NCBI GenBank assembly: GCA_038245115.1
Contig: JBBRSS010000005.1
Span: forward strand, 3,141 to 67,140
DNA length: 64,000 nucleotides
Direction: 5' to 3'
From: Candidatus Saccharimonadia bacterium
GTDB taxonomy: Bacteria; Patescibacteriota; Saccharimonadia; UBA4664
Numbering within the stretch: the stretch's first letter is position 1; the number at the start of each line of letters is the position of its first letter. A model generated the notes under the pieces. It ran no database searches. It was not told the DNA's origin and saw nothing but the letters and a program-made list of their open reading frames with translations. This document shows positions 2,138 to 64,000 of this stretch, one piece after another. The position numbers and the translations under genes are program-made.

Positions 2138-3947
2138 ACGACCAGTTGTGATGGGTATGGGCGTTGGCCTGGCGCTGGTGGGTGCTGTGGTAGGGACGGG
2201 TTGGATGCGCACGCAGGGCACCCTGAAGGTAGCAGTTGCCGGCCAGCAGGCCGTGCTGGTAGCCGGGCCGCTCAAGGTGGCCTTTAGCCAAGATGTGGCG
2301 GCCGGGTTTTCGGCCACGATCGAGCCTAAAGTGGCCGGAACGTGGCAAACTGAGCGGACTGTTTTCGGGGTGAGCGCGGTGGCGTTTACGCCGACTAAGC
2401 GGTTTGAGGCCGGGCGCACGTATTCGCTGCACATCAAGGGCATGAAGCGCGCGGTAACCAATCAGGCTCTCGGCGAGGTGCAGCAAGGATTTGCGACCCA
2501 GCTGCCATCCGGGGTGGCGAAAACTTCGCCGGCGGCCGATGCGGTGGACGTAGCGGCCAAGCCCCGGCTAACGGTAGTTTTACGCGAGGCCAACCAAGGT
2601 GTGCGCCAACTCAAGCCCACGTTAACACCGGCGATACCGCTGAAGTACATTTCGAGCGATGACAAAACATTCGTCTGGGAACCGCAGACGCCCCTAAAAC
2701 AGGGCGAAAAGTACACCTTTACGCTGGAAGACACCCGTGTTGCCGATCCGGCGAAACGTAATTTGTTTAATAATGTCTTTACGGTGGTGGCGCAGCCGGT
2801 GATTGCCTCGGCCCGCACGGGAGGATATTTTACACCCGGGCAAACCGTGGATATTGGCTTTGGGCAGCCGATGGAGCCCAGCGCGACGGCCTTTAAGTTT
2901 GATCTGGCGGGCAAGGGCAGCTGGGTGGACGACCGCACCTACCGCTACGTGCCGACGGACGGGGCGCTAAAGCCGGGCAAGACCTACAATTACGTGGTGA
3001 AAGCGGGCTTGAAGTCGAAAGCGGGTGGGGTTATGGAGGCCGACACGGCCTACCAGTTCTCCAGCACCGGCGCCGTGGGGGCGAGCATAAGCCCGGGCGG
3101 GGGCAATGTAGGGTTAAATACACCGATCAAAGTGACGTTTGATCAACCGGTGGACCATGCCTCGGCGCAGGCTCGGTTTAGTATCAGCCCTGCTGCGGCG
3201 GGGGCGTTCTCGTGGAGCGGCAACACCATGATTTACGCGCCCACGGGGTTGGCCTACCAGAGCGAATACGCGGTACGGGTAACCGCCGGAGTAGTGCCGA
3301 ACTGGGGACTGCCCAACACCGCCATACTGAGCGGGTCGCTGGCCACGCTGCCGGAGACGATAAAGCTCGGCGTGCCGGCCTATAAGACTCAGTACAAAAT
3401 GAGCTGCGAACTGGCAGCCACGCGCATGCTATTGGCATTTCGCGGCATCAATGTGAGCGATTGGGACGTACTGATGAAACTCAGCTATAATCCCCGCCCG
3501 CGGGACCTTGCTACCAACTCCTGGGACGACCCAAACGTGATGTACGTGGGCGACGTCAACGGTAATGCTAATTCCACCAGCTACGGCGTCCATGCCGGGC
3601 CAATTGCGGCGGCGGCGCGCAGCTTCGGACGTTCTGCCACGTCGCAGTTCAATGTGTCGGCCGCCTTTATAGCCACGCGCATCCATGAGGGTAATCCGGT
3701 GATCTTTTGGGGGCACAGCACGCCGGCCAAGCCGGACTCCTGGAATACTTCTAGCGGCGTAGTGCAAACCATACTGTCGTCGCACGCGCGGGTGGTGTAC
3801 GGCGTAGTGGGGAGCGCCGACGCGCCGATTGGGTTCCACATTATCGAAACCTCAAAGGGAACAACCATGTACTGGACTACCGCCGAGTTAATGGCGAATA
3901 TGAATATTATTCCCGGAGTGAGCAACCAGACGGTGGTGGTTTACTAG
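2121..3947 (+). CDS. Secreted/membrane-anchored protein with Ig-like (SbsA-type) repeats and a C-terminal peptidase C39-like (YvpB-type) domain
   Basis: N-terminal hydrophobic anchor, then repeated ~90-aa beta-rich segments. C-terminal 'YKTQYKMSCELAATRMLLAFRG' resembles the catalytic Cys region of the C39_2 family, with downstream His residues. Confidence 0.45.
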   Translation: MHLISKRPVVMGMGVGLALVGAVVGTGWMRTQGTLKVAVAGQQAVLVAGPLKVAFSQDVAAGFSATIEPKVAGTWQTERTVFGVSAVAFTPTKRFEAGRTYSLHIKGMKRAVTNQALGEVQQGFATQLPSGVAKTSPAADAVDVAAKPRLTVVLREANQGVRQLKPTLTPAIPLKYISSDDKTFVWEPQTPLKQGEKYTFTLEDTRVADPAKRNLFNNVFTVVAQPVIASARTGGYFTPGQTVDIGFGQPMEPSATAFKFDLAGKGSWVDDRTYRYVPTDGALKPGKTYNYVVKAGLKSKAGGVMEADTAYQFSSTGAVGASISPGGGNVGLNTPIKVTFDQPVDHASAQARFSISPAAAGAFSWSGNTMIYAPTGLAYQSEYAVRVTAGVVPNWGLPNTAILSGSLATLPETIKLGVPAYKTQYKMSCELAATRMLLAFRGINVSDWDVLMKLSYNPRPRDLATNSWDDPNVMYVGDVNGNANSTSYGVHAGPIAAAARSFGRSATSQFNVSAAFIATRIHEGNPVIFWGHSTPAKPDSWNTSSGVVQTILSSHARVVYGVVGSADAPIGFHIIETSKGTTMYWTTAELMANMNIIPGVSNQTVVVY

Positions 3948-4234
3948 TCCCGTAGAGGGCGATCTTGACGGATGTCACGCTGCCAAACAACCGGGTCGGT
4001 AATCTGCGAGTAGGCACCGGCGGCTTGCAACTCGTGAAGTAAAGATTGAATTCGACTACGATCCTGCTTGATATGGGGTAAGGGTAACTGAATAGTGGCT
4101 TTTTGTCCCAACTCGAGGTGAGCGTCTTTGACATATTGCCTAGGCACGCGAAGGGCGTATGAATTACCGACTTTTATTACTGTCGCGATATAGTTGCTCA
4201 TAATGCCTACTATTATAGATACTAATCTATTCAA
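3944..4234 (-). CDS. AbrB/MazE (SpoVT-AbrB swapped-hairpin) family DNA-binding protein
   Basis: 'VIKVGNSYALRVPRQYVKDAHLELG' is a typical MazE/AbrB N-terminal beta-hairpin motif; 96 aa. Confidence 0.5.
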   Translation of the reverse strand: MNRLVSIIVGIMSNYIATVIKVGNSYALRVPRQYVKDAHLELGQKATIQLPLPHIKQDRSRIQSLLHELQAAGAYSQITDPVVWQRDIRQDRPLRD

Positions 4235-51576: not shown

Positions 51577-52014
51577 CTATACGACAGGTTTGACCTTGAT
51601 CTTCTTGACCTTGTCTTGGGCAACCTTGGGAATAGTCACCGTGAGGACGCCGTCCTTGAGAGACGCAGCGGCCTTCTCGGCAATCGTGGAGGTCGGCAGA
51701 ATGACTGAGCGGGAGAACGAGCCCCAGTAGCATTCCTGGACATAGTAGTGCTCGCGGTCAACTTCTTTTTCTTCGATGCGTTCGCCGCGAATAGTAACGA
51801 CGTCTTCGGCGACTTCGATATCAATCTTGTCTGGTGTAACCCCGGCGATGGGGGCCTTGATGACGACGTTTTCTTTGGTCTGGTAGACGTCGACGGCCAG
51901 CTGGCCTTCGGCCTCGGCCATCCAGTCTTCCTCACCCTCGACAGAGGTGTCTAGGAAGTCGTCTTGTAATACGTTTTCTTGATCGTTGAGGGGAGCGTTT
52001 TTCTTGCCCGGCAT
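51577..52014 (-). CDS. Hsp20/alpha-crystallin family small heat-shock protein
   Basis: 'WMAEAEGQLAVDVYQTKENVVIKAPIAGV...IDIEVAEDVVTIRGER...GSFSRSVILP...DGVLTVTIPK' alpha-crystallin domain. Start is the ATG at 52014 with GGAGG upstream; the track's longer start is spurious. Confidence 0.85.
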   Translation of the reverse strand: MPGKKNAPLNDQENVLQDDFLDTSVEGEEDWMAEAEGQLAVDVYQTKENVVIKAPIAGVTPDKIDIEVAEDVVTIRGERIEEKEVDREHYYVQECYWGSFSRSVILPTSTIAEKAAASLKDGVLTVTIPKVAQDKVKKIKVKPVV

Positions 52015-52130
52015 GCAGGTGAGCCTCCGCGTTAATGACTTCATGATTTTACAGGCCTGCTTTGTAATTTGCGATGCAGGTAAGTTTTCCCTATTATAGC
52101 CAAATGTTGCGTTGAAAGGCAAGCAAGGGA

Positions 52131-52793
52131 GTGATAATTGATCGATTATTGGAAATTTTAGCGCCGATTAACTGCTTGGGATGCGGATTCGAGGGTGCTG
52201 TAGTTTGTACAACATGCATGGATGGCTTGAGCGCGCCAAGCCGGACAATATGCTTTGGTTGCGGCAGAAATAGCCCCGGCGGAAAAACCTGCGAGCTATG
52301 CGTCAGACGCAGTTCGTTGGCCGGAGTGAGCGTGGGGGCGAATTATGACGGCACGGTGAAGGAGCTGATTCTGCAACTGAAGTTCCATCGTTTGCGCGCA
52401 GCAACCGAGGCGGCAGCAGAGATTATGTTGCGTACGGAGCCGTATTGGCCACGGGTTCACATGGTAACTAGTGTGCCGGTATCGGCGTCGCGCCAGCGTG
52501 AGCGGGGGTACAACCAGTCGGAATTGTTGGCTAAGGCTGTAGCGAGGCGAGTCGGCTTGCCCTACTCCGCGGCGCTAGGGAGACTCACTACGACGCATCA
52601 GATCGGTTTGGATCGCCGTAGCCGCTTCGAACAGGTTGAGAGTGCTTTTTATGCCAAGCGGGCCCTGATGGGCCAGCAGGTGCTGCTGGTGGACGATGTG
52701 GTGACTACTGGCGCAACTTTATCGGCTTGCGCCGGGATGTTGCGGGATGCTGGCGCCGCCGGGATTTGGGCTGTGGCCGTCGCTCGGCACTAA
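52131..52793 (+). CDS. comF: ComF-family (ComFC-like) phosphoribosyltransferase-domain protein
   Basis: N-terminal Cys4 zinc finger 'CLGCGFEGAVVCTTC...CFGCG' and a PRTase motif 'VLLVDDVVTTGATL'. Confidence 0.7.
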   Translation: MIIDRLLEILAPINCLGCGFEGAVVCTTCMDGLSAPSRTICFGCGRNSPGGKTCELCVRRSSLAGVSVGANYDGTVKELILQLKFHRLRAATEAAAEIMLRTEPYWPRVHMVTSVPVSASRQRERGYNQSELLAKAVARRVGLPYSAALGRLTTTHQIGLDRRSRFEQVESAFYAKRALMGQQVLLVDDVVTTGATLSACAGMLRDAGAAGIWAVAVARH

Positions 52794-54914: not shown

Positions 54915-55007
54915 GGAGAGGTACCCAAGTGGCTGAAGGGGCGGGTTTGCTAAACCTGTAGGGGGGAGTAATCCCCCGCGAGAGTTCGAATCTCTCCCTC
55001 TCCGCCA
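54915..55007 (+). tRNA. tRNA-Ser (anticodon GCU), class II with a long variable arm
   Basis: Sequence GGAGAGGTACCCAAGTGGCTGAAGGGGCGGGTTTGCTAAACC... The acceptor stem GGAGAGG pairs with CCTCTCC. The anticodon loop is TTGCTAA. There is a long variable stem (GGGGGGAG/CTCCCCC region), a T-arm GTTCGAATC and an encoded CCA. Confidence 0.85.
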
Positions 55008-55066: not shown

Positions 55067-56602
55067 TCACGGTGAAACGATCACCCAATCGGCGTTTTGA
55101 TAGTCGGTTTTGTAGCGGCAGGCTGCAAAGTAATCTATCTGAGGTTTCATGGTAGTTCGATCAAGAATAACGCCGGATACCCGGCCGTTTTTAAGGTGCT
55201 GAGTTATTAGATTACACGGGAATGCGGGGGTGGCGATGTCACGAAGGAGGTTGTTCCAGGCGTGATAATTTGGGCTTTCCGGGGGTTGAACGTTGAGCAT
55301 GCGGGTACGGCTGAGCCACGGGAATCGCATAACGGCCCAATGGCTGCCGATGAAGGACTGCTGGGGATGATTCTCGAGGTAATGCGCCGTCTGCCGATCG
55401 GTGGCGGTGACGGTGACGGGTCGGAGATTTGCGGCAAGATATTGGCTTTGGGCTTCGTAGCTTATGGCTATGAGAATGATTACATTGGTGGCAAGAACGG
55501 CTAATATATATTTTCGATAATGGCGGGCTAGCGTGAGATTGGCGAGCCGCACGGTTGTCAGAGTGAGAGGGAGCAGCAGAATTAGGACAGAACGACGCCA
55601 GCTGTGAACGGGAATAAGCTGCCAGACGGTCGAAACCGTAAGCCATACGCCAAGGTATGGATCGATGGCGCGAGTTATCATCACGCGGGTAATCTGATCT
55701 TTTCTGAGCGTGAGTGCTGCCAATATTAGAGCGATTATGATGCCAATGAGTAGCGGTAGTAAGGTTTTGGGCTCGAAGAGAGTGATATTGGTGGCGAGTT
55801 GGTTGCGGAAGAATTCGTTGGTGTTCCCCAACCAGGCGTAGTAGGCGCCGGCCAAGAGGGTGGGCAAGATAAGTGTTGACGTTCGAAGGTGGCGGAGCCT
55901 GTTGGATTTGCCGGAGATTAATGCCCAGGCGACGATAATGGTTAGCCAATAAAAAATATAATACGGATGAATTAGAGCCCATGCTCCTGCCAGTAGCCCC
56001 AGTAGCGGCCAAGTACGAGTATTTTCACGGTTAATATACAGGCCGCCGAGGCAAACTATGGTCATGAGGATTGAGAATAGATCCGATGGCGAGGCAATTG
56101 TTGCGTACACGAGGGAGGCATCGGTGAGCTCGCGGCCGAAGCCGAGTAGCATTAGCGGAAATGGTATGAACACCAGGAGGCCGCATAGCCATAGCATGGT
56201 GCGGTTGGGATTTTGGTCGGTTTGACGGCACCAGGCGCGATTGAAATAGAATAGTGCAATCCCGATGCCGATAAGTAAGATGAGGCGGAGGCCGATGGCG
56301 GCTAACGCGGGTGAGTCGAAGTGATATAACGAGTGGCTGAAGCTCCAGAGGAGCTGGACGCGGCAACCGCCTTCGTTGAGCGTGGAGGTGAGGTTTTGCA
56401 GGCAGATGGTGGGGCTGGCAATCAGGATGTTGTAGATCCGATCGTCGACTGTGAAAGCGGGGATGACCTGGGTGGAGCCGGCGGTGAATACTGTTCGGAG
56501 CAGGGCAACAATGAAGCCGCCGAACCCTATGAGCAGAGCAAGAATTAGGCTCAGGCTGAGGGTAAGTGCGGCCGGAGGAGATTTGAGAGACAGTCGTGTC
56601 AC
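55067..56602 (-). CDS. Polytopic membrane protein (PMT/ArnT-like glycosyltransferase candidate)
   Basis: 511 aa with more than 12 TM helices. It is the last gene of a four-ORF translationally coupled operon. Confidence 0.45.
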   Translation of the reverse strand: MTRLSLKSPPAALTLSLSLILALLIGFGGFIVALLRTVFTAGSTQVIPAFTVDDRIYNILIASPTICLQNLTSTLNEGGCRVQLLWSFSHSLYHFDSPALAAIGLRLILLIGIGIALFYFNRAWCRQTDQNPNRTMLWLCGLLVFIPFPLMLLGFGRELTDASLVYATIASPSDLFSILMTIVCLGGLYINRENTRTWPLLGLLAGAWALIHPYYIFYWLTIIVAWALISGKSNRLRHLRTSTLILPTLLAGAYYAWLGNTNEFFRNQLATNITLFEPKTLLPLLIGIIIALILAALTLRKDQITRVMITRAIDPYLGVWLTVSTVWQLIPVHSWRRSVLILLLPLTLTTVRLANLTLARHYRKYILAVLATNVIILIAISYEAQSQYLAANLRPVTVTATDRQTAHYLENHPQQSFIGSHWAVMRFPWLSRTRMLNVQPPESPNYHAWNNLLRDIATPAFPCNLITQHLKNGRVSGVILDRTTMKPQIDYFAACRYKTDYQNADWVIVSP

Positions 56603-56862
56603 CGATTTCGGCTTCGAATGAAGGCGATGAGTTGCTGTTTGAGCTGGCTGTAGGCCGGTTTGCCCAGGGTTGCAACGCCAGCTATAAAACTGATCTCGGC
56701 TGATACGAGGACGATGATCCAGATGAGCCCTTGATGGCTCACGTGGGTAAATGGGATGATGAATTCAGCTGCCCAACCAAGACCGGCCAGATAAATAAAT
56801 GTGATCCCAATTTTGAGGCGGTGTGTTAGGAGCGGCAGATTGGGTTTTGGGCGGGCAATCAT
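56599..56862 (-). CDS. Small two-TM membrane protein
   Basis: 87 aa; ATGA overlaps on both sides. Confidence 0.4.
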   Translation of the reverse strand: MIARPKPNLPLLTHRLKIGITFIYLAGLGWAAEFIIPFTHVSHQGLIWIIVLVSAEISFIAGVATLGKPAYSQLKQQLIAFIRSRNR

Positions 56863-57020
56863 TGTAAGGATTTGAGCTCACGCTGCAGATTGGCGCAGAG
56901 CAAGATTTGCTGTGTAGGCTCGAGGTAGTCGAAAATTTCTAGCCAGTAATTGAGCTCGCCCGGATCTTCGCCGAGCCCGATTAGCTGGTGAACGAGGGTA
57001 GTGAGTTCAAGCTTGTCCAT
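56859..57020 (-). CDS. Small ORF (53 aa), translationally coupled
   Basis: Reads MDKLELTTLVHQLIGLGEDPGELNYWLEIFDYLEPTQQILLCANLQRELKSLQ. Stop/start overlap TAGATG upstream and ATGA downstream. Not in the track (below 60 aa). Confidence 0.3.
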   Translation of the reverse strand: MDKLELTTLVHQLIGLGEDPGELNYWLEIFDYLEPTQQILLCANLQRELKSLQ

Positions 57021-57665
57021 CTATGCGGCCCTCTCAGCTTCAATTTGGGGGCCACTCTTAGGGTAATCTCGAATGTCGGCGATTATCTTTCTAATCTTGA
57101 GCTCGGTGGCTGTTTCGGCTTTGGCGGTGAGGTTCGGGTTGGAGGCCATGAACTTGGCCGATATTTCGAAAATACGAGCCGATTTGGCGGCTCCTTTTTC
57201 GGCCAGGCTGGCAGCCAACTTTCCGACTAGGTTTACGCTTTTACCGGCCAACATAGTCCCCTCTGGGATATCTTCGATACCGGTGAAGTCTAAGGCCAGA
57301 CTGCCGGCACCCATAGCGGCGTGTATGATCCGACTTCTTCCACTGACCTCATTGCCGTCAAGGGTTGTACTGGCGATAGATTCGGTGAGCAGCTTGCTTC
57401 CGCCTAAGAATGGAACAAGATTGAGGCCGTTGCTGACTAGGGGCGAGGTTAGGACACCCTTGAGAATGTTTCCGCGTTCGGCACTAGCTTGCTCGATGAC
57501 TTTGTCTCTCTCCGCGCCTGACTCGGGCGTAGCTTGGGTGTCACGATGAGCTTCTGGGTGAGCGCCGGCTTCGGCACGGATAGCGAGAAGCTCGTCGGTG
57601 AGGGCGTCGTGTGATTCGGCTTCGTTTATATCGGGCTGATCTTCCATTAAGTCATTGGTGTCCAT
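57021..57665 (-). CDS. Hypothetical protein, first gene of the coupled operon
   Basis: 214 aa, acidic N-terminus, no recognisable motif. Confidence 0.4.
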   Translation of the reverse strand: MDTNDLMEDQPDINEAESHDALTDELLAIRAEAGAHPEAHRDTQATPESGAERDKVIEQASAERGNILKGVLTSPLVSNGLNLVPFLGGSKLLTESIASTTLDGNEVSGRSRIIHAAMGAGSLALDFTGIEDIPEGTMLAGKSVNLVGKLAASLAEKGAAKSARIFEISAKFMASNPNLTAKAETATELKIRKIIADIRDYPKSGPQIEAERAA

Positions 57666-57764
57666 AAGTTTAGCCGCCTATTGTTAGAGCAAGAATTGGC
57701 GGAACACACGGGTCTGGAACTCAGAATATGTATCAATTTTTTACACTTTACAGATAATAATGGG

Positions 57765-57808
57765 ACAAATGAGACACAGAACACCTATATGCGTCGTGTC
57801 TCATTTAT
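57765..57808. repeat. Palindromic element copy 1: AAATGAGACAC-N18-GTGTCTCATTT
   Basis: Reads GGGACAAATGAGACACAGAACACCTATATGCGTCGTGTCTCATTTATAGG. The 11-bp arms are perfect reverse complements. Confidence 0.6.
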
Positions 57809-57840
57809 AGGTAGCTAGTAATGTTTTTGGGCTTTTGCGG

Positions 57841-58905
57841 CTACGCTGCTGAGCTCTGTTCTTTGTCGTTGTATGTTGGTCGCGCTTCGGCAGGTGCAGC
57901 AGCAGGTAACTGATATAGCTTATCTGCGCCTAGGTCTGCAACGATTTGACTGCGTACGGCTTCCATTTTGATCTTGTATTCTTCACGAGCAGCTACAACT
58001 TCAGAGGCTTTCTTGTCGAGCATAGCCTGTAGCATTTCCTTAGCAGCGTCACTACTTGCCGTAGCAAGCCGCTCCTCAAGTTTGATAATTTCATCGCCAA
58101 AGACTTCATCTGTAATTGTTTGCAGCTCTGCAACGCCTGCTTCTCCCACGGCAATTTTTTCCTCTACAGTAGCTTTTGCCTGCTCAAGGTCAGTAGAAAA
58201 CTTTGCGTATTCCGTTGCGTGTATACCACGAATGCCTTTTAATAGTCCGAGTGAGTCGTTTGTCTCGCGGAAGTTCTCGACAAGGTCAGGATGATTGTTG
58301 AGTAGATTATCGAAGTCTCCGCTCATTAGTAGTCCAGAACTATCTGTATAGCCACCGGTATCACGGCCGCGATGTACGCGGTTTCCGTCAACATCATGCA
58401 TGACTCGCTTATTCTCAACGCTGAACATCTCGTATTTACGAAAACGTTCCATCGCACTAACGTGTGTATTGGCGTCTGCTACGCCGCCAAGCGTTTGATC
58501 CAATCGCTCTGCAAGTGCGGCCATCGGCTCGGCTTTTATTGCTCCGTAAAGTTCTTTTTGCTCGCTTTTCTCTGGGGCAAGCTTTTGTATAACATCCTGA
58601 AGCGTACCTGCTCGCCGTCCATCTTTGTCATAGCCTTGCATTGCATCGAGGAACTTGTCTGCTCCATAACGATCAACCATTACTTGAAGTCCTGCACCTA
58701 TAATACTACCCTCAAGTCCTCGCTGTACCTCGTCTATACCATGTAGCTCGCCGGCTTTTTGTTGTAGGGTGTCAATATCGCTTTTTTCAAGAGTTTTCTC
58801 TTGCTCTAGAAGCATAAGTCCAGTTTCAACAGGCGCATTTTGTTCAACCGTGTCGCTAGTTTGCTCTTGGGGTTGTTCTGGTGTCATTCGGATGAGTTCA
58901 CTCAT
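57841..58905 (-). CDS. Hypothetical protein in the lower-GC segment
   Basis: 354 aa (MSELIRMTPEQPQEQ...). Predicted helical; no recognisable motif. Confidence 0.4.
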   Translation of the reverse strand: MSELIRMTPEQPQEQTSDTVEQNAPVETGLMLLEQEKTLEKSDIDTLQQKAGELHGIDEVQRGLEGSIIGAGLQVMVDRYGADKFLDAMQGYDKDGRRAGTLQDVIQKLAPEKSEQKELYGAIKAEPMAALAERLDQTLGGVADANTHVSAMERFRKYEMFSVENKRVMHDVDGNRVHRGRDTGGYTDSSGLLMSGDFDNLLNNHPDLVENFRETNDSLGLLKGIRGIHATEYAKFSTDLEQAKATVEEKIAVGEAGVAELQTITDEVFGDEIIKLEERLATASSDAAKEMLQAMLDKKASEVVAAREEYKIKMEAVRSQIVADLGADKLYQLPAAAPAEARPTYNDKEQSSAA

Positions 58906-59203
58906 GCTTTCCTTTTCCCTTGTAGTGTTATTTTAGTTGTTTGTTTTTGTTCTAACCTGCTAACAATATAGCATACGTAGGTAATATTGTCAAGGTAACG
59001 CAACCGTTCGGGGAGGTTCACTATTGAAATCACAAGAAACTAAATAGCCAGTAGTTTATATTCGGAGACATATCCTGTACTAGTTGGCCCATGTTGTTTT
59101 ACAATATATTCCTCTTCTAGGAGTATGTCAGTGTAGTCAGCCTCTAGGTGGCCGATTGTTAAACTCCTGGACTTTGTACCCCATTGCGGTACATTGTCCT
59201 TGT

Positions 59204-59983
59204 ATGGAATCAATCGTATCCCAACAGACACCACAGGTAGCAAAAACAGCACTGATTCGCTGGTGTTTGTACGCTCGCAAATCCAGCGAGCAAGACGAAC
59301 GCCAAGCCTTATCAATCGAGCAACAAATCAAGGAAATGCTACTACTTGCCGACCATTGGGGCATAGAAATAGCCGAAGTTCGCAAAGAGAGTCATTCCTC
59401 CAAAGAATCAGGCACTAGGCCGATCTATAACCGACTTATTAAGGACATTCAACTTGGCTACTTCAACGGAATTGTGACATGGGCACCTGATAGGTTGTCC
59501 CGAAATGCCGGTGACCTTGGTATTCTGGTAGATTTGATGGATCAGGGTAAGCTCGCGGAGATCCGCACTCACGGTCAAACGTTCACTAACTCGCCAAATG
59601 AGAAGTTCCTGCTGATGATTCTTGGCTCACAGGCCAAGCTAGAGAACGATAACAGAGGCCTCAATGTCATCCGGGGACTACACAACAAAGCCGCCAACGG
59701 CTGGAGACCTGGAGTTGCGCCGATCGGCTACCTGAATAATGGTCTCGGCGATGAGAAGATAATTGTCGATGAAATTCGATCACCGATCATTGTAGAAATG
59801 TTTGAGAGAGTCGCCAAACAAGCCTACACCGGCCGGGAAGTAAAACGCTGGCTCGATGGCATAGACTTCGTAAGCAGACATGGTAAACGCCTCGTCTTAA
59901 GCCATATTTACCGTACGCTAAAGAATCCCTTCTACTACGGCGAGTTCCAATACCCCAAGACCAGCGAAACGATGCATCACTGA
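59204..59983 (+). CDS. Large serine recombinase, N-terminal catalytic (resolvase-type) domain; the ORF ends at an in-frame TGA
   Basis: 'TALIRWCLYARKSSEQDERQ' has the Ser nucleophile in a YAR-x-SS context. 'GIVTWAPDRLSRNAGDLGILVDLMDQGKLAEIRTHGQ' is a resolvase motif, and the recombinase-domain motif begins at 'GWRPGVAPIGY'. The likely start is the ATG at 59204; the track begins at 59084. Confidence 0.6.
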   Translation: MESIVSQQTPQVAKTALIRWCLYARKSSEQDERQALSIEQQIKEMLLLADHWGIEIAEVRKESHSSKESGTRPIYNRLIKDIQLGYFNGIVTWAPDRLSRNAGDLGILVDLMDQGKLAEIRTHGQTFTNSPNEKFLLMILGSQAKLENDNRGLNVIRGLHNKAANGWRPGVAPIGYLNNGLGDEKIIVDEIRSPIIVEMFERVAKQAYTGREVKRWLDGIDFVSRHGKRLVLSHIYRTLKNPFYYGEFQYPKTSETMHH

Positions 59984-60568
59984 AAACATGCACCGATAAT
60001 CAGCAAAGATCTGTTTGACGAAGTCCAGATCCAGCTGACGGTAGCCCCAAAGGCTCCAGCAGGTACCAAAGAGTTTAGTTTCACTAGGATGATCAAATGT
60101 GGTGTTTGTAAAACGGGTGTTACAGCAGAAGAAAAGTTGAAGAAGCTCAAAACTGGCGAGATCAGACGGTATGTGTACTACCACTGCGGTAGGGCAAACG
60201 ATCTTGACTGCATCCAGCCATACATTCGCGAAGGCGAACTGATGATCGAGTTGCTTAATGTTATCGATGAGCTTGAAATAGATGAAATAGGTGCTCACCA
60301 ACAGTTCAAAGAAGAACTCATACGATATGAGAGGTTTATAGGCGTATTAGAGCAAAGTAACAATAGTAGTTCTCAAAAAACCAAGCCAACGATCGATCTG
60401 AAAGCATACTCAAAGTATGTGCTGCAACATGGAACTAAAGAAGAAAAGCGTGAGATTCTCCAATATGTAACCGGCGAATTATTCCTCAAAGATCAAAAGG
60501 TCTATGTTGAGCGAAAAACGAGGTCTAAAAAGTTTATCCCGGCCAGTTCGAATCCCATCGCCATCTGA
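59984..60568 (+). CDS. Large serine recombinase, C-terminal recombinase/zinc-ribbon portion, same frame as the N-part
   Basis: The region immediately after the TGA reads 'KHAPIISKDLFDEVQ', typical of large serine recombinases. It is followed by a zinc ribbon 'CGVCKTG...YYHCGRAND' and a coiled-coil. The track ORF starts at 60089. The 59984-60088 interval is 35 in-frame codons with no stop. Confidence 0.55.
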   Translation, partial: KHAPIISKDLFDEVQIQLTVAPKAPAGTKEFSFTRMIKCGVCKTGVTAEEKLKKLKTGEIRRYVYYHCGRANDLDCIQPYIREGELMIELLNVIDELEIDEIGAHQQFKEELIRYERFIGVLEQSNNSSSQKTKPTIDLKAYSKYVLQHGTKEEKREILQYVTGELFLKDQKVYVERKTRSKKFIPASSNPIAI

Positions 60569-60738
60569 ACGGGAATGGTCAAAATTCACGCACCACATAA
60601 CATTTTGCGGTAATTAAAAACGACCTTGTACCTTTAGTATGCACTTTAGGTGGACGGGTCGTTTTAGAACTTTATTCTTGGCGGAGCAGCCGGGTCAGGA
60701 ACTTTCCGACTGTCTCAAGGATTATATCCCTTAAGGAG

Positions 60739-60791
60739 GAAATGAGACAAATAAGACACTATAAAAAGGGGATTGTTTCGTGTCTCATTTC
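60739..60791. repeat. Palindromic element copy 2: GAAATGAGACA-N31-TGTCTCATTTC
   Basis: Reads GGAAATGAGACAAATAAGACACTATAAAAAGGGGATTGTTTCGTGTCTCATTTCGAAG. It shares its arms and a loop ACAC(C)TATA core with copy 1. Confidence 0.6.
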
Positions 60792-60924
60792 GAAGCCCTC
60801 GTAGCCTTGACTTGACTGAATCGCTATTACAACGCATGGGCTAGCGTTCTGACCTTTTAATCCGCTTAAGCTTGCATTATCAGATAGGGAGAGTAGTTAA
60901 TGGTGCCTTAAATAGGAATAAATC

Positions 60925-61748: not shown

Positions 61749-63194
61749 CTATTCTAACTTGTCTTTGGCGTCAGTTCTCCTTATTTCTCGGCCCAAGCTG
61801 TCTTTTTTGACGTTAGGGATCTCTTCTTTACCGCTGCTCATCTTAAAATCGAATGTCCGGATAAAGTCAGGCACTGAGTCATCATTATCGCGCATCGGTA
61901 TGATCACTCGGAGTAGCGGATTCATTTTGGATCGAATAAAAGGAATACTGGTCGACTTTTTCTTGCCGCTCTTAAGGGTGATCTCGGCTGGTACCGAATC
62001 CAGAGTCATATTGTGCAGGTAAACCAGGGACGATTCACGAAGGTTGCGCTCTCTTGGGCTCAGCGTTGTCGGTGGATGATCCGGCAGTTCTTCAACTGGC
62101 TTCGCTGTTGGTGGCGGTAAGGTGCCATGCTTGGCTTTTTGCTCGATTAGCTTCCGTAGTTCATCTTCGCTTTCGTAGGCTCGGAGCCGACCGGTCAAAT
62201 AGCCAACTCGGTAACTCACCCCCTCGCTCATCAGTCGCCAATTTGTGTCTTCAAGGGTCTTACCGATCAGTTTTTGCAGATCTTTTTTGCTGTTATATTC
62301 TTCACGCTCTGGTTTAGCGTCTAGGCAACTGAAACCAACAGCCACCTCGCGGCCTAGCTGCGGCTGATCCAGCTTAAACTCGGTGTAGCTAGCTTTCTCT
62401 AGGATTGGTTTCAAGATCTCAGCCAACTGAGCAATTTTGAGCTTCTTGATATCTTTGATGGTCTCATAGATATCGGTATGCACAGCTTGATCAGCGACGG
62501 TAGCCTCGAGCTTCATTAGACGCTCGAGATGACGGCGTTTCTGCTCGTACTTAAACATCATGTCACTATCGAAGACAAACCGCTTATTATCCAGCTCATA
62601 GTTAGGATCGGGTGGCTCTTCTTCGGTACTTCCACCAAGCTCAAAGCTGTCTTGGTAACTATGTCCACATTTTGGGCATTTGTAGGTAATTGTGACAATC
62701 TTGTTATCAGTTTTGCCGGTATGATCCATTGATTCGCCGCATTTCTCGCATAAGGTCTTGGCACCCTCCCACTCGGTGCCGTCTTGCCAGTAAGCCTGGC
62801 GCTTATTGCAGCTATCACACTCAAACATCAGTAGGATATCATCTTCATTGCGACCCTCGCGACGCATATAGTTCTTGCTAATCACCCGCATATCTTTGCC
62901 GCAACTGCGGCAGTACATACTACCCTCGACGTGGGCGTTAGCTAAGACACGGTCTTTCTCTTCGTCCCGAGCCAGCCAGTCATTGATGGTCTGATCACCC
63001 TTTACTGCTCGCGCGGCTGCCTGGGACTCAACGAGGCCAAAATAAAGCTGGCTATAGAACAAGTACCAGGCAGGACGACGTTGTTCAATTTCTGACGGTG
63101 GCACTTTCCGTTCCATCTCGCGGAAAGTGCCATTAACTATTCGTTCGCCAGAGCGACAGCCCTCAACTGTGATCTCGTCATAGACGATCCTCAT
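61749..63194 (-). CDS. Zinc-ribbon-rich protein (four CxxC pairs), tightly linked downstream of the reverse transcriptase
   Basis: 'CRSCGKD ... CDSCNK ... CEKCGES ... CPKCGHS' form two probable zinc ribbons. The C-terminal half is helical and charged; 481 aa. It lies 19 nt after the RT stop. Confidence 0.5.
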   Translation of the reverse strand: MRIVYDEITVEGCRSGERIVNGTFREMERKVPPSEIEQRRPAWYLFYSQLYFGLVESQAAARAVKGDQTINDWLARDEEKDRVLANAHVEGSMYCRSCGKDMRVISKNYMRREGRNEDDILLMFECDSCNKRQAYWQDGTEWEGAKTLCEKCGESMDHTGKTDNKIVTITYKCPKCGHSYQDSFELGGSTEEEPPDPNYELDNKRFVFDSDMMFKYEQKRRHLERLMKLEATVADQAVHTDIYETIKDIKKLKIAQLAEILKPILEKASYTEFKLDQPQLGREVAVGFSCLDAKPEREEYNSKKDLQKLIGKTLEDTNWRLMSEGVSYRVGYLTGRLRAYESEDELRKLIEQKAKHGTLPPPTAKPVEELPDHPPTTLSPRERNLRESSLVYLHNMTLDSVPAEITLKSGKKKSTSIPFIRSKMNPLLRVIIPMRDNDDSVPDFIRTFDFKMSSGKEEIPNVKKDSLGREIRRTDAKDKLE

Positions 63195-63212: not shown

Positions 63213-64000
63213 CTAATCCTCCTGCTTGGTTAATGCCTTTATTGTAATAAGCTGGCTCAGCTCATATGCGTCGGCGTGAGAGCACAACCCAACGTAAGAC
63301 GTCAGACTGATGATATCCACCCTCTCGAGCGCTCGTAGCTTGGTCTTGTGGCGCAGAACGATACATTGAGGCTTGAGCACATAGCCCAAGAAGTCTATTC
63401 CCTGACCCCAGCTCCGGATGGTGATCTTATTGGGGTGGATCGTAAGACCCAGCCGCACACTTAAGAACTGAGTAATCGGCTCAATCAAATCGAGTAAATG
63501 CTGTCGGTTGGTACTGAGAACAATGAAATCATCACAGTAGCGCAGATAATGCCTCTCACGTAAGCGATTCTTCACGAACCAATCAAACTCATGCAAGTAA
63601 ATATTAGCAAAGAGCTGGCTGGTGAGATTGCCGAGTGGAATACCTTTGCCTGGGCTTGTAGAGAGGCTGTCGATTATCGTTTGAAGCAACTTGAGTGTAT
63701 CTGCGTCAGTAACTTTCTGCTTCAGTAGATCCATAAGAATCTCGTGATCAACCGAGGCAAAGAACTGCTTCACATCACACTTGAGGGCGTACACCGTTTG
63801 GGTGTTGTTATGGCTAGCTTGTCGCAAGAAGGTTCGCAAACGCCTAACTGCCGCGTGAGTGCCTTTTTTCTTGCGGCAGGAATAGCTGTCATAGATAAAC
63901 TGGCGTTCGAATAGTGGCTCAATGGCACTAACGAGCGCCTGATGAACTAAGCGGTCTTGGACAGTAGCCTTATGGATTCGGCGCGTTTTTGGATCGCAAA
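63213..64000 (-). CDS. Reverse transcriptase with diversity-generating-retroelement (DGR)-type signatures; the 5' end runs off the window
   Basis: Manual translation beyond the track ORF gives ...DPKTRRIHKATVQDRLVHQALVSAIEPLFERQFIYDSYSCRKKKGTHAAVRRLRTFLRQ... This covers RT motifs 1-2 ('KCDVKQFFASVDH'), motif 4 'GIPLGNLTSQLFANIYL' with SQ in place of the QG..SP of group II introns, motif 5 'RYCDDFIVL' (YxDD), and a thumb 'IRSWGQGIDFLGYVL'. Confidence 0.7.
   Translation of the reverse strand, partial: CDPKTRRIHKATVQDRLVHQALVSAIEPLFERQFIYDSYSCRKKKGTHAAVRRLRTFLRQASHNNTQTVYALKCDVKQFFASVDHEILMDLLKQKVTDADTLKLLQTIIDSLSTSPGKGIPLGNLTSQLFANIYLHEFDWFVKNRLRERHYLRYCDDFIVLSTNRQHLLDLIEPITQFLSVRLGLTIHPNKITIRSWGQGIDFLGYVLKPQCIVLRHKTKLRALERVDIISLTSYVGLCSHADAYELSQLITIKALTKQED

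Follow-up and report, generated by a model that had tools for sequence, protein, structure and literature searches.

The large serine recombinase gene and its reading frame

The window, that is the whole stretch of DNA analysed with its length of 64,000 nucleotides, encodes a large serine recombinase (LSR) in a gene of 454 codons which starts at an ATG (59204), ends at a stop at 60566-60568 and is interrupted only once, by an in-frame TGA at codon 260 (Table 1). A first-pass annotation had described two ORFs (59084-59983 and 60089-60568) in the same frame with no further stop in the 105 nt between them, and both the sequence and its translation confirm this: the ORFs belong to one reading frame, the linking segment (59984-60088) is free of stops and translates to KHAPIISKDLFDEVQIQLTVAPKAPAGTKEFSFTR, and the TGA at 59981-59983 is the sole interruption. 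The TTG at 59084 is merely the first mechanical start of the 5' ORF, and the likely start of the gene is the ATG at 59204 (MESIVSQQ...), matching the database proteins P0001 and P0131. The 5' part is identical to P0131 (259 aa) and the mechanical ORF from the ATG at 60089 corresponds to P0129 (159 aa); both proteins are recorded on one NCBI contig of 67,334 bp.

Table 1. Features of the recombinase locus and of the small element that carries it (positions in the window)
Feature	Positions	Strand	Description
W1	57696..57808	+	first copy of module W; nhmmer E = 2e-28
g354	57841..58905	-	the one additional gene in the ~3-kb element; matches no family
LSR 5' part	59204..59980	+	codons 1-259; Resolvase catalytic domain and most of the Recombinase domain
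In-frame TGA, codon 260	59981..59983	+	stands where the closest DNA relatives have the Gly codon GGC
LSR 3' part	59984..60568	+	codons 261-454 and TGA stop; end of Recombinase domain, linker, zinc ribbon, C-terminal region
Inverted repeat AAAAACGACC ... GGGTCGTTTT	60614..60665	+	conserved LSR 3' UTR; kept in L001, L009 and L010
TGGCGGAG core	60679..60686	+	homology with relatives ends here; followed by the tRNA-Ser body in relatives and by W2 in the window (attP-like junction)
W2	60678..60792	+	second copy of module W; tRNA-like TGGCGGAGCAGCCGGGTCAGGAAC and ATGAGACA/TGTCTCAT repeats; nhmmer E = 4e-24

The read-through enzyme of about 455 amino acids that had been predicted, with a catalytic serine, a recombinase domain and a zinc ribbon, is recovered as a joined product of 454 aa with three Pfam domains: Resolvase at residues 22-166 (1.8e-20), Recombinase (PF07508) at residues 192-278 (9e-12), which crosses the stop site at residue 260, and Zn_ribbon_recom (PF13408) at residues 293-350 (7.8e-6). 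The catalytic motifs YARKSS and APDRLSR can be read in the translation, and the joined product aligns with the solved SPbeta LSR YokA/SprA through the position of the stop. A database search returns thousands of full-length homologues of 420-460 aa that cover both halves (best E = 0), which together with the domains that extend across the stop places the continuity of the two halves far beyond chance. The upstream part has the catalytic domain with the nucleophilic serine and the DRLSR-type motif that characterise an LSR; the Recombinase domain and zinc ribbon that should reside on the same polypeptide are, under the standard code, separated from it by the TGA. Judged by its sequence, the locus descends from an LSR gene, and its predicted product is an incomplete LSR.

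The two ends of the gene vary between relatives. The terminal stop is TGA in the window and TAA in relatives, and the related protein P0123 is without the last eight codons (SSNPIAI and the stop, 60545-60568 in the window) and reads into the 3' UTR, a difference that corresponds to a 24-nt indel polymorphism. At the other end, DNA homology between the LSR genes of different elements starts sharply at codons 20-21 (CLYARKSS), as seen by comparing 59204-59263 of the window with relatives, and the first 20 or so codons and all sequence upstream of them are unrelated among element types. The N-terminal tail of the LSR seems to travel with the cargo side of the element and not with the core of the enzyme.

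The elements of intact relatives

The gene was compared with 94 related loci comprising 95 gene copies of 45-96% identity, almost all of them labelled as metagenome-assembled genomes (MAGs) of Saccharibacteria or other Patescibacteria, and some of the relatives of 45-50% identity come from bins with a Gammaproteobacteria or Pseudomonadales label. Among the close relatives, at 75% identity or above, 28 extend far enough downstream of the LSR to be assessed, and every one of them has a tRNA-Ser gene 103-147 bp past the LSR on the opposite strand, and the anticodons of the tRNA-Ser genes beside relatives' LSRs are CGA, GGA, GCT and TGA. DNA homology between elements ends at TGGCGGAG, which is the reverse complement of the tRNA-Ser 3' end. 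Several kb upstream of the LSR and on the same strand, relatives carry one copy of a module of about 113 bp, here termed W, which consists of a tRNA-like start, TGGCGGAACACACGGGTCTGGAAC, and four ATGAGACA/TGTCTCAT repeats after it; over its first 25 positions W agrees with the end of the tRNA at about 15. Copies are located at 6074-6178 in L001, 443-556 in L009 and 6327-6440 in L024 and occur in others as well, across many Saccharimonadales MAGs. Module W and the tRNA junction bound elements of about 2.7-9.3 kb which contain unrelated cargo.

A role of W as a structured RNA was considered and rejected: Rfam gives no hit, and an alignment of 11 copies has no covarying pair. Conservation of the repeats resides in their sequence, pointing to protein-binding sites, and the module as a whole looks like an att arm combined with these putative sites. 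The contigs themselves provide a view of the element boundaries. The ENA contig L011 (6583 bp) spans exactly from the TTGGCGG at the start of W to the TTGGCGG past the LSR 3' UTR, and the contigs of L005, L006, L007 and L014 end at or near the TTGGCGG core. A contig that runs from core to core and assemblies that break at the junction are as expected if these positions are recombination boundaries, and they suggest that the elements occur in several contexts, or as circles, in those metagenome samples. The intact enzyme presumably integrates a small circular element at tRNA-Ser 3' ends via a short core within TGGCGGAG, and the att crossover presumably takes place at this 8-bp core beside the tRNA-Ser.

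L012 and L009 at first seemed to show one element at two different tRNA-Ser genes, but they represent the same locus with a difference in the anticodon; the pair is no independent insertion and does not count toward mobility. The 6.6-kb LSR element of L009 contains a pair of 115-nt repeats (3619-3733 and 4066-4180) in which 20 out of 20 mismatches between variable and template repeat fall on template adenines, and a reverse transcriptase gene lies immediately upstream of its LSR gene. To judge from this pattern, the L009-type element carries a genuine diversity-generating retroelement (DGR).

The window copy in a putative tandem array

The LSR of the window is followed by a second copy of W instead of the usual tRNA-Ser, so that the intact adjacent tRNA gene which makes the relatives' elements tRNA-gene islands is not found next to this copy, as would suit a distal member of a tandem array. 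A 26-nt repeat (D4) joins 57696-57721 and 60678-60703 with 85% identity. W1 is presumed to be the left end of the element of about 3 kb which carries the broken LSR, and W2 is presumed to be that of a second element, which continues past the window. The arrangement looks like two elements in tandem, with the broken LSR in the outer one of about 3 kb, composed of W1, g354 and the LSR gene. The inverted repeat in the LSR 3' UTR probably acts as a terminator and also belongs to the att arm on the element side. g354 has no match in Pfam or PADLOC, none of the 94 related loci has a homologue of it, and g565, g214 and g211 likewise yield nothing in Pfam or PADLOC. From W2 onwards the presumed second element comprises a 54-aa ORF (g54), two orphan genes (g211 and g481) and a reverse transcriptase.

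The tandem order would follow from the properties of the module. As W mimics the end of the tRNA, the outer junction of an integrated element resembles the original target and a second element may integrate there; the outer element with the broken LSR would then be the most recently added member of the array, and the tRNA end would lie beyond position 64,000. The attP-like junction between LSR and W has no match in scans of metagenome and viral contigs.

An alternative derivation of the locus would account for the missing tRNA by an inversion of 5.7 kb, with one end at the 3' end of a tRNA-Ser(GCT) gene (55000-55007) and the other at the inverted TGGCGGAG at 60679-60686. It was rejected because this tRNA gene (54915-55007) has a terminator-like hairpin of its own downstream, because W2 follows the LSR as in a tandem array, and because a relative shows the tRNA gene in synteny with the same chromosomal neighbours.

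Several further features of the window are worth recording. The tRNA-Ser(GCT) gene and its HSP20 and phosphoribosyltransferase neighbours (51577-52793) are syntenic with L001, and the genes at 55067-57665, between this tRNA gene and W1, are orphans with no family match. The reverse transcriptase (63213-63998, minus strand) runs off the end of the window; it matches Pfam RVT_1 (1e-24) and has the motif LGNLTSQ, which is typical of DGR reverse transcriptases, and the window itself holds no template/variable repeat pair for it. Adjoining it is a 481-aa multi-zinc-ribbon protein (61749-63194) that has homologues near more distant LSRs in L054, L081 and L072. A third, more divergent W-like sequence is located at 263-351 on the minus strand (CATACGGGTCACGAACCC ... 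AATGGGACAAATGGGACAC ... GTGTCTCG; nhmmer E = 5e-5). Its closest likeness is to the L054 variant, and a small ORF lies beyond it toward the start of the window; the sequence may mark the end of a further element that the window edge truncates.

Codon 260 in relatives

The aligned codon specifies glycine in 95 of the 95 related gene copies (GGC in 45, GGA in 26, GGT in 17 and GGG in 7), and TGA is found in none of them. The position is nearly but not absolutely invariant, since the cluster member P0130 has a serine. The closest DNA relatives, L015 and L009, read CAC GGC AAA where the window reads CAC TGA AAA, and the best homologue, P0001 (454 aa), equals the read-through product except for a glycine at the stop and a glutamate in place of Asp-269. 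Exact-pattern scans of genome and metagenome collections found no match to a TGA or other NGA allele with these flanks. The first-pass annotation had named, as an outcome that would speak against its reading, homologues in which the two halves are normally separate genes; this was not borne out: the homologues are single genes, alignment to intact LSRs identifies glycine as the residue expected at this position, and in the comparison with related genomes the stop is confined to the window.

Age and nature of the lesion

Changes specific to the window lineage were defined as positions at which L015, L009 and L001 agree against the window, and the variable first 20 codons of the LSR were excluded from the counts. 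After codon 20 the lineage has accumulated 26 synonymous changes, no missense change and a single nonsense change. Downstream of the stop all nine window-specific changes are synonymous, and dN/dS against L015 in this part is about 0.005/0.24. Apart from the stop, the pattern of substitution is that of a gene which is under strong purifying selection up to the present sequence. A ratio of 26 synonymous to zero missense changes implies that the stop either arose at the very tip of the lineage, or is unreal, or is read through; as a lesion it must be very recent, because the rest of the gene shows no decay. These possibilities coincide with the three that had been put forward at the outset, namely fresh inactivation, a sequencing or assembly error and a recoded stop, of which the last is the least supported.

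The stop is probably a real and very recent nonsense mutation. A point change would have converted the conserved Gly-260 codon into TGA, which is one step away from GGA and two from GGC. Under the standard code translation would end after residue 259, and the product would keep the catalytic domain and most of the Recombinase domain while losing the end of the latter, the zinc ribbon and the C-terminal region. Characterised LSRs need these parts for att-site recognition and synapsis, so the truncated enzyme should be inactive. With the presumed loss of recombinase activity, the element of about 3 kb (57696-60686) would no longer move by its own enzyme, as the earlier suggestion of a fixed mobile element would have it. 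A second recombinase encoded beyond the window could act on it in trans; the window itself encodes no second serine recombinase. Two observations speak against a fresh nonsense mutation. The codon differs from GGC at two positions, which makes a single recent event less likely unless the immediate ancestor had GGA, and a perfectly preserved downstream half is also what is expected if that half is still translated.

A consensus or strain-mixing error in a MAG would look identical to a nonsense mutation. It is possible, though clearly less probable, that the stop is such an artefact of assembly, consensus calling or strain mixture, and that the real gene is intact with glycine at codon 260 and the TGA absent or a minor variant. 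The source is a metagenome-assembled genome, as are all of the relatives, and the two halves are recorded on a single NCBI contig; the pattern scans found the TGA allele in no other assembly, and an intact allele that encodes an otherwise near-identical protein exists in P0001. That two of the three codon positions differ from the closest DNA relatives in a gene otherwise free of decay would also fit an artefact. On the other hand, substitution errors in a consensus are rare, and the interruption is neither an indel nor a homopolymer slip and leaves the frame intact. The flanking codons are clean, and the 26 ordinary synonymous differences of the lineage suggest a coherent haplotype, all of which speaks against an artefact.

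Genetic code and recoding

UGA is decoded as glycine in the Gracilibacteria and Absconditabacteria (code 25), and the presence of UGA where glycine is expected in a genome of the Patescibacteria invites the comparison. It is nevertheless very unlikely that the UGA at codon 260 is decoded to give the full-length recombinase, whether as glycine, by near-cognate read-through or as selenocysteine (Sec). Such decoding would account for the perfect preservation of the downstream half, which would still be translated, and members of the LSR family do occur in Gracilibacteria MAGs (P0075); a low level of the product might then limit integrase expression. However, TGA behaves as a genuine stop throughout the window, where it terminates recF and four genes with glycosyltransferase domains, several of these with their domains covered in full, and ORFs that reach 1546 codons in length lack any internal TGA. 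No other homology-supported gene with an in-frame TGA was found across the 64 kb, and the only other pairs of ORFs of at least 100 codons each that are joined by a TGA involve one shadow ORF and one overlap ORF. The frequent internal UGA codons and the loss of UGA as a terminator that define code 25 are therefore not seen in the window, and the opinion in the first-pass annotation that a genome-wide reassignment of UGA is unlikely stands. The site itself shows no conservation as a UGA, given that none of the 95 relatives uses TGA here.

The window is also without the machinery that recoding would require. It has no suppressor or Sec tRNA, ARAGORN finding only the tRNA-Ser(GCT), and an Rfam search of the window gives no match beyond that tRNA. 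A hairpin at 60000-60038, 19 nt downstream of the UGA, has a predicted stability of -13.6 kcal/mol (z = -2.7), and it is more stable than its counterparts in relatives, which could be taken in favour of a recoding signal. Its extra stability comes from an Asp/Glu polymorphism, which is also present in L016 with an intact GGC codon. The hairpin is modest and closed by a GAA triloop unlike bacterial SECIS elements, and a SECIS or read-through structure was rejected on these grounds; the downstream hairpin that had been proposed as a check is thus present but not SECIS-like. Sec normally takes the place of cysteine and not of glycine, and with glycine rather than cysteine in the homologues and a hairpin that is only weakly significant the gene does not qualify as a bacterial selenoprotein. 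Recoding is unlikely because TGA is a real stop here and is accompanied by no other in-frame TGA, suppressor tRNA or SECIS-like element.

The narrower proposition that UGA-260 is sometimes read as glycine, through a UGA-reading tRNA-Gly or leaky termination, and yields a little full-length recombinase is highly improbable. If true, it could represent a first step toward the UGA=Gly code of the sister lineages, or alternatively the trace of an element that moves between hosts with different codes. Least probable of all is a split enzyme made of a 259-aa catalytic fragment and a 159-aa zinc-ribbon fragment initiated separately at the ATG at 60089, for although public annotation calls both ORFs separate proteins (P0131 and P0129), every homologue is a single polypeptide, no other genome has the gene split, and the arrangement would lose 35 residues between the stop and that ATG including the conserved KHxPII motif.

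Comparison with known systems

The layout of Resolvase, Recombinase and zinc-ribbon domains is shared with well-known LSRs including SprA/YokA of SPbeta and the integrases of TP901-1, A118 and phiC31. By sequence the window LSR matches SprA/YokA and the TP901-1 integrase and has both YxRxS and DRLSR motifs, and like known LSRs its gene is located at the edge of an integrated element beside a short att core. It differs from the solved LSRs in its low identity to them (E about 1e-9) and in that the window copy is stopped at residue 260. In the scans its clade is found almost only in MAGs of Saccharibacteria and other Patescibacteria, and its elements, in contrast to those of phage LSRs, are non-phage elements with a very small size of about 2.7-9.3 kb.

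The elements also resemble the tDNA islands and tandem island arrays of the Islander catalogue (PMC4383910): those of the relatives lie at the 3' end of a tRNA gene and supply tRNA-like sequence, a displaced or mimic fragment is present at the far end, and two elements are apparently in tandem at one target. The Islander study states that tyrosine integrases usually catalyse insertion into tDNA (PMC4383910), whereas the present elements use a serine recombinase and have a shared core of only some 8 bp (TGGCGGAG).

A single disabling mutation in a recombinase gene is reminiscent of the pseudogenised integrases of decaying prophages and islands. In contrast to these, the window gene is without frameshifts or missense changes and its att-like flanks are intact, and it is either an artefact or a gene whose decay has only just begun. 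The likeness to code 25 ends with the single codon, which occurs in a Saccharimonadales host that follows the standard code in the window.

Significance

The stop codon in itself is nothing unusual: the integrase gene has either been broken recently or been assembled wrongly, and the LSR should be annotated as a pseudogene or as needing verification by reads. The broader interest lies in the elements to which it belongs. No description of these tRNA-Ser serine-integrase elements of Saccharibacteria was found in the literature, and the clade of Saccharibacteria serine integrases beside tRNA-Ser 3' ends, with four anticodons, is apparently undescribed. Its elements are very small, carry cargo, in at least one case include a DGR that appears to be in working order, and have an end module that partly mimics the tRNA. 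Saccharibacteria are hard to manipulate genetically, and a compact integrase whose natural target is defined could therefore be of practical interest, an interest that rests on the intact relatives and not on the broken copy in the window.
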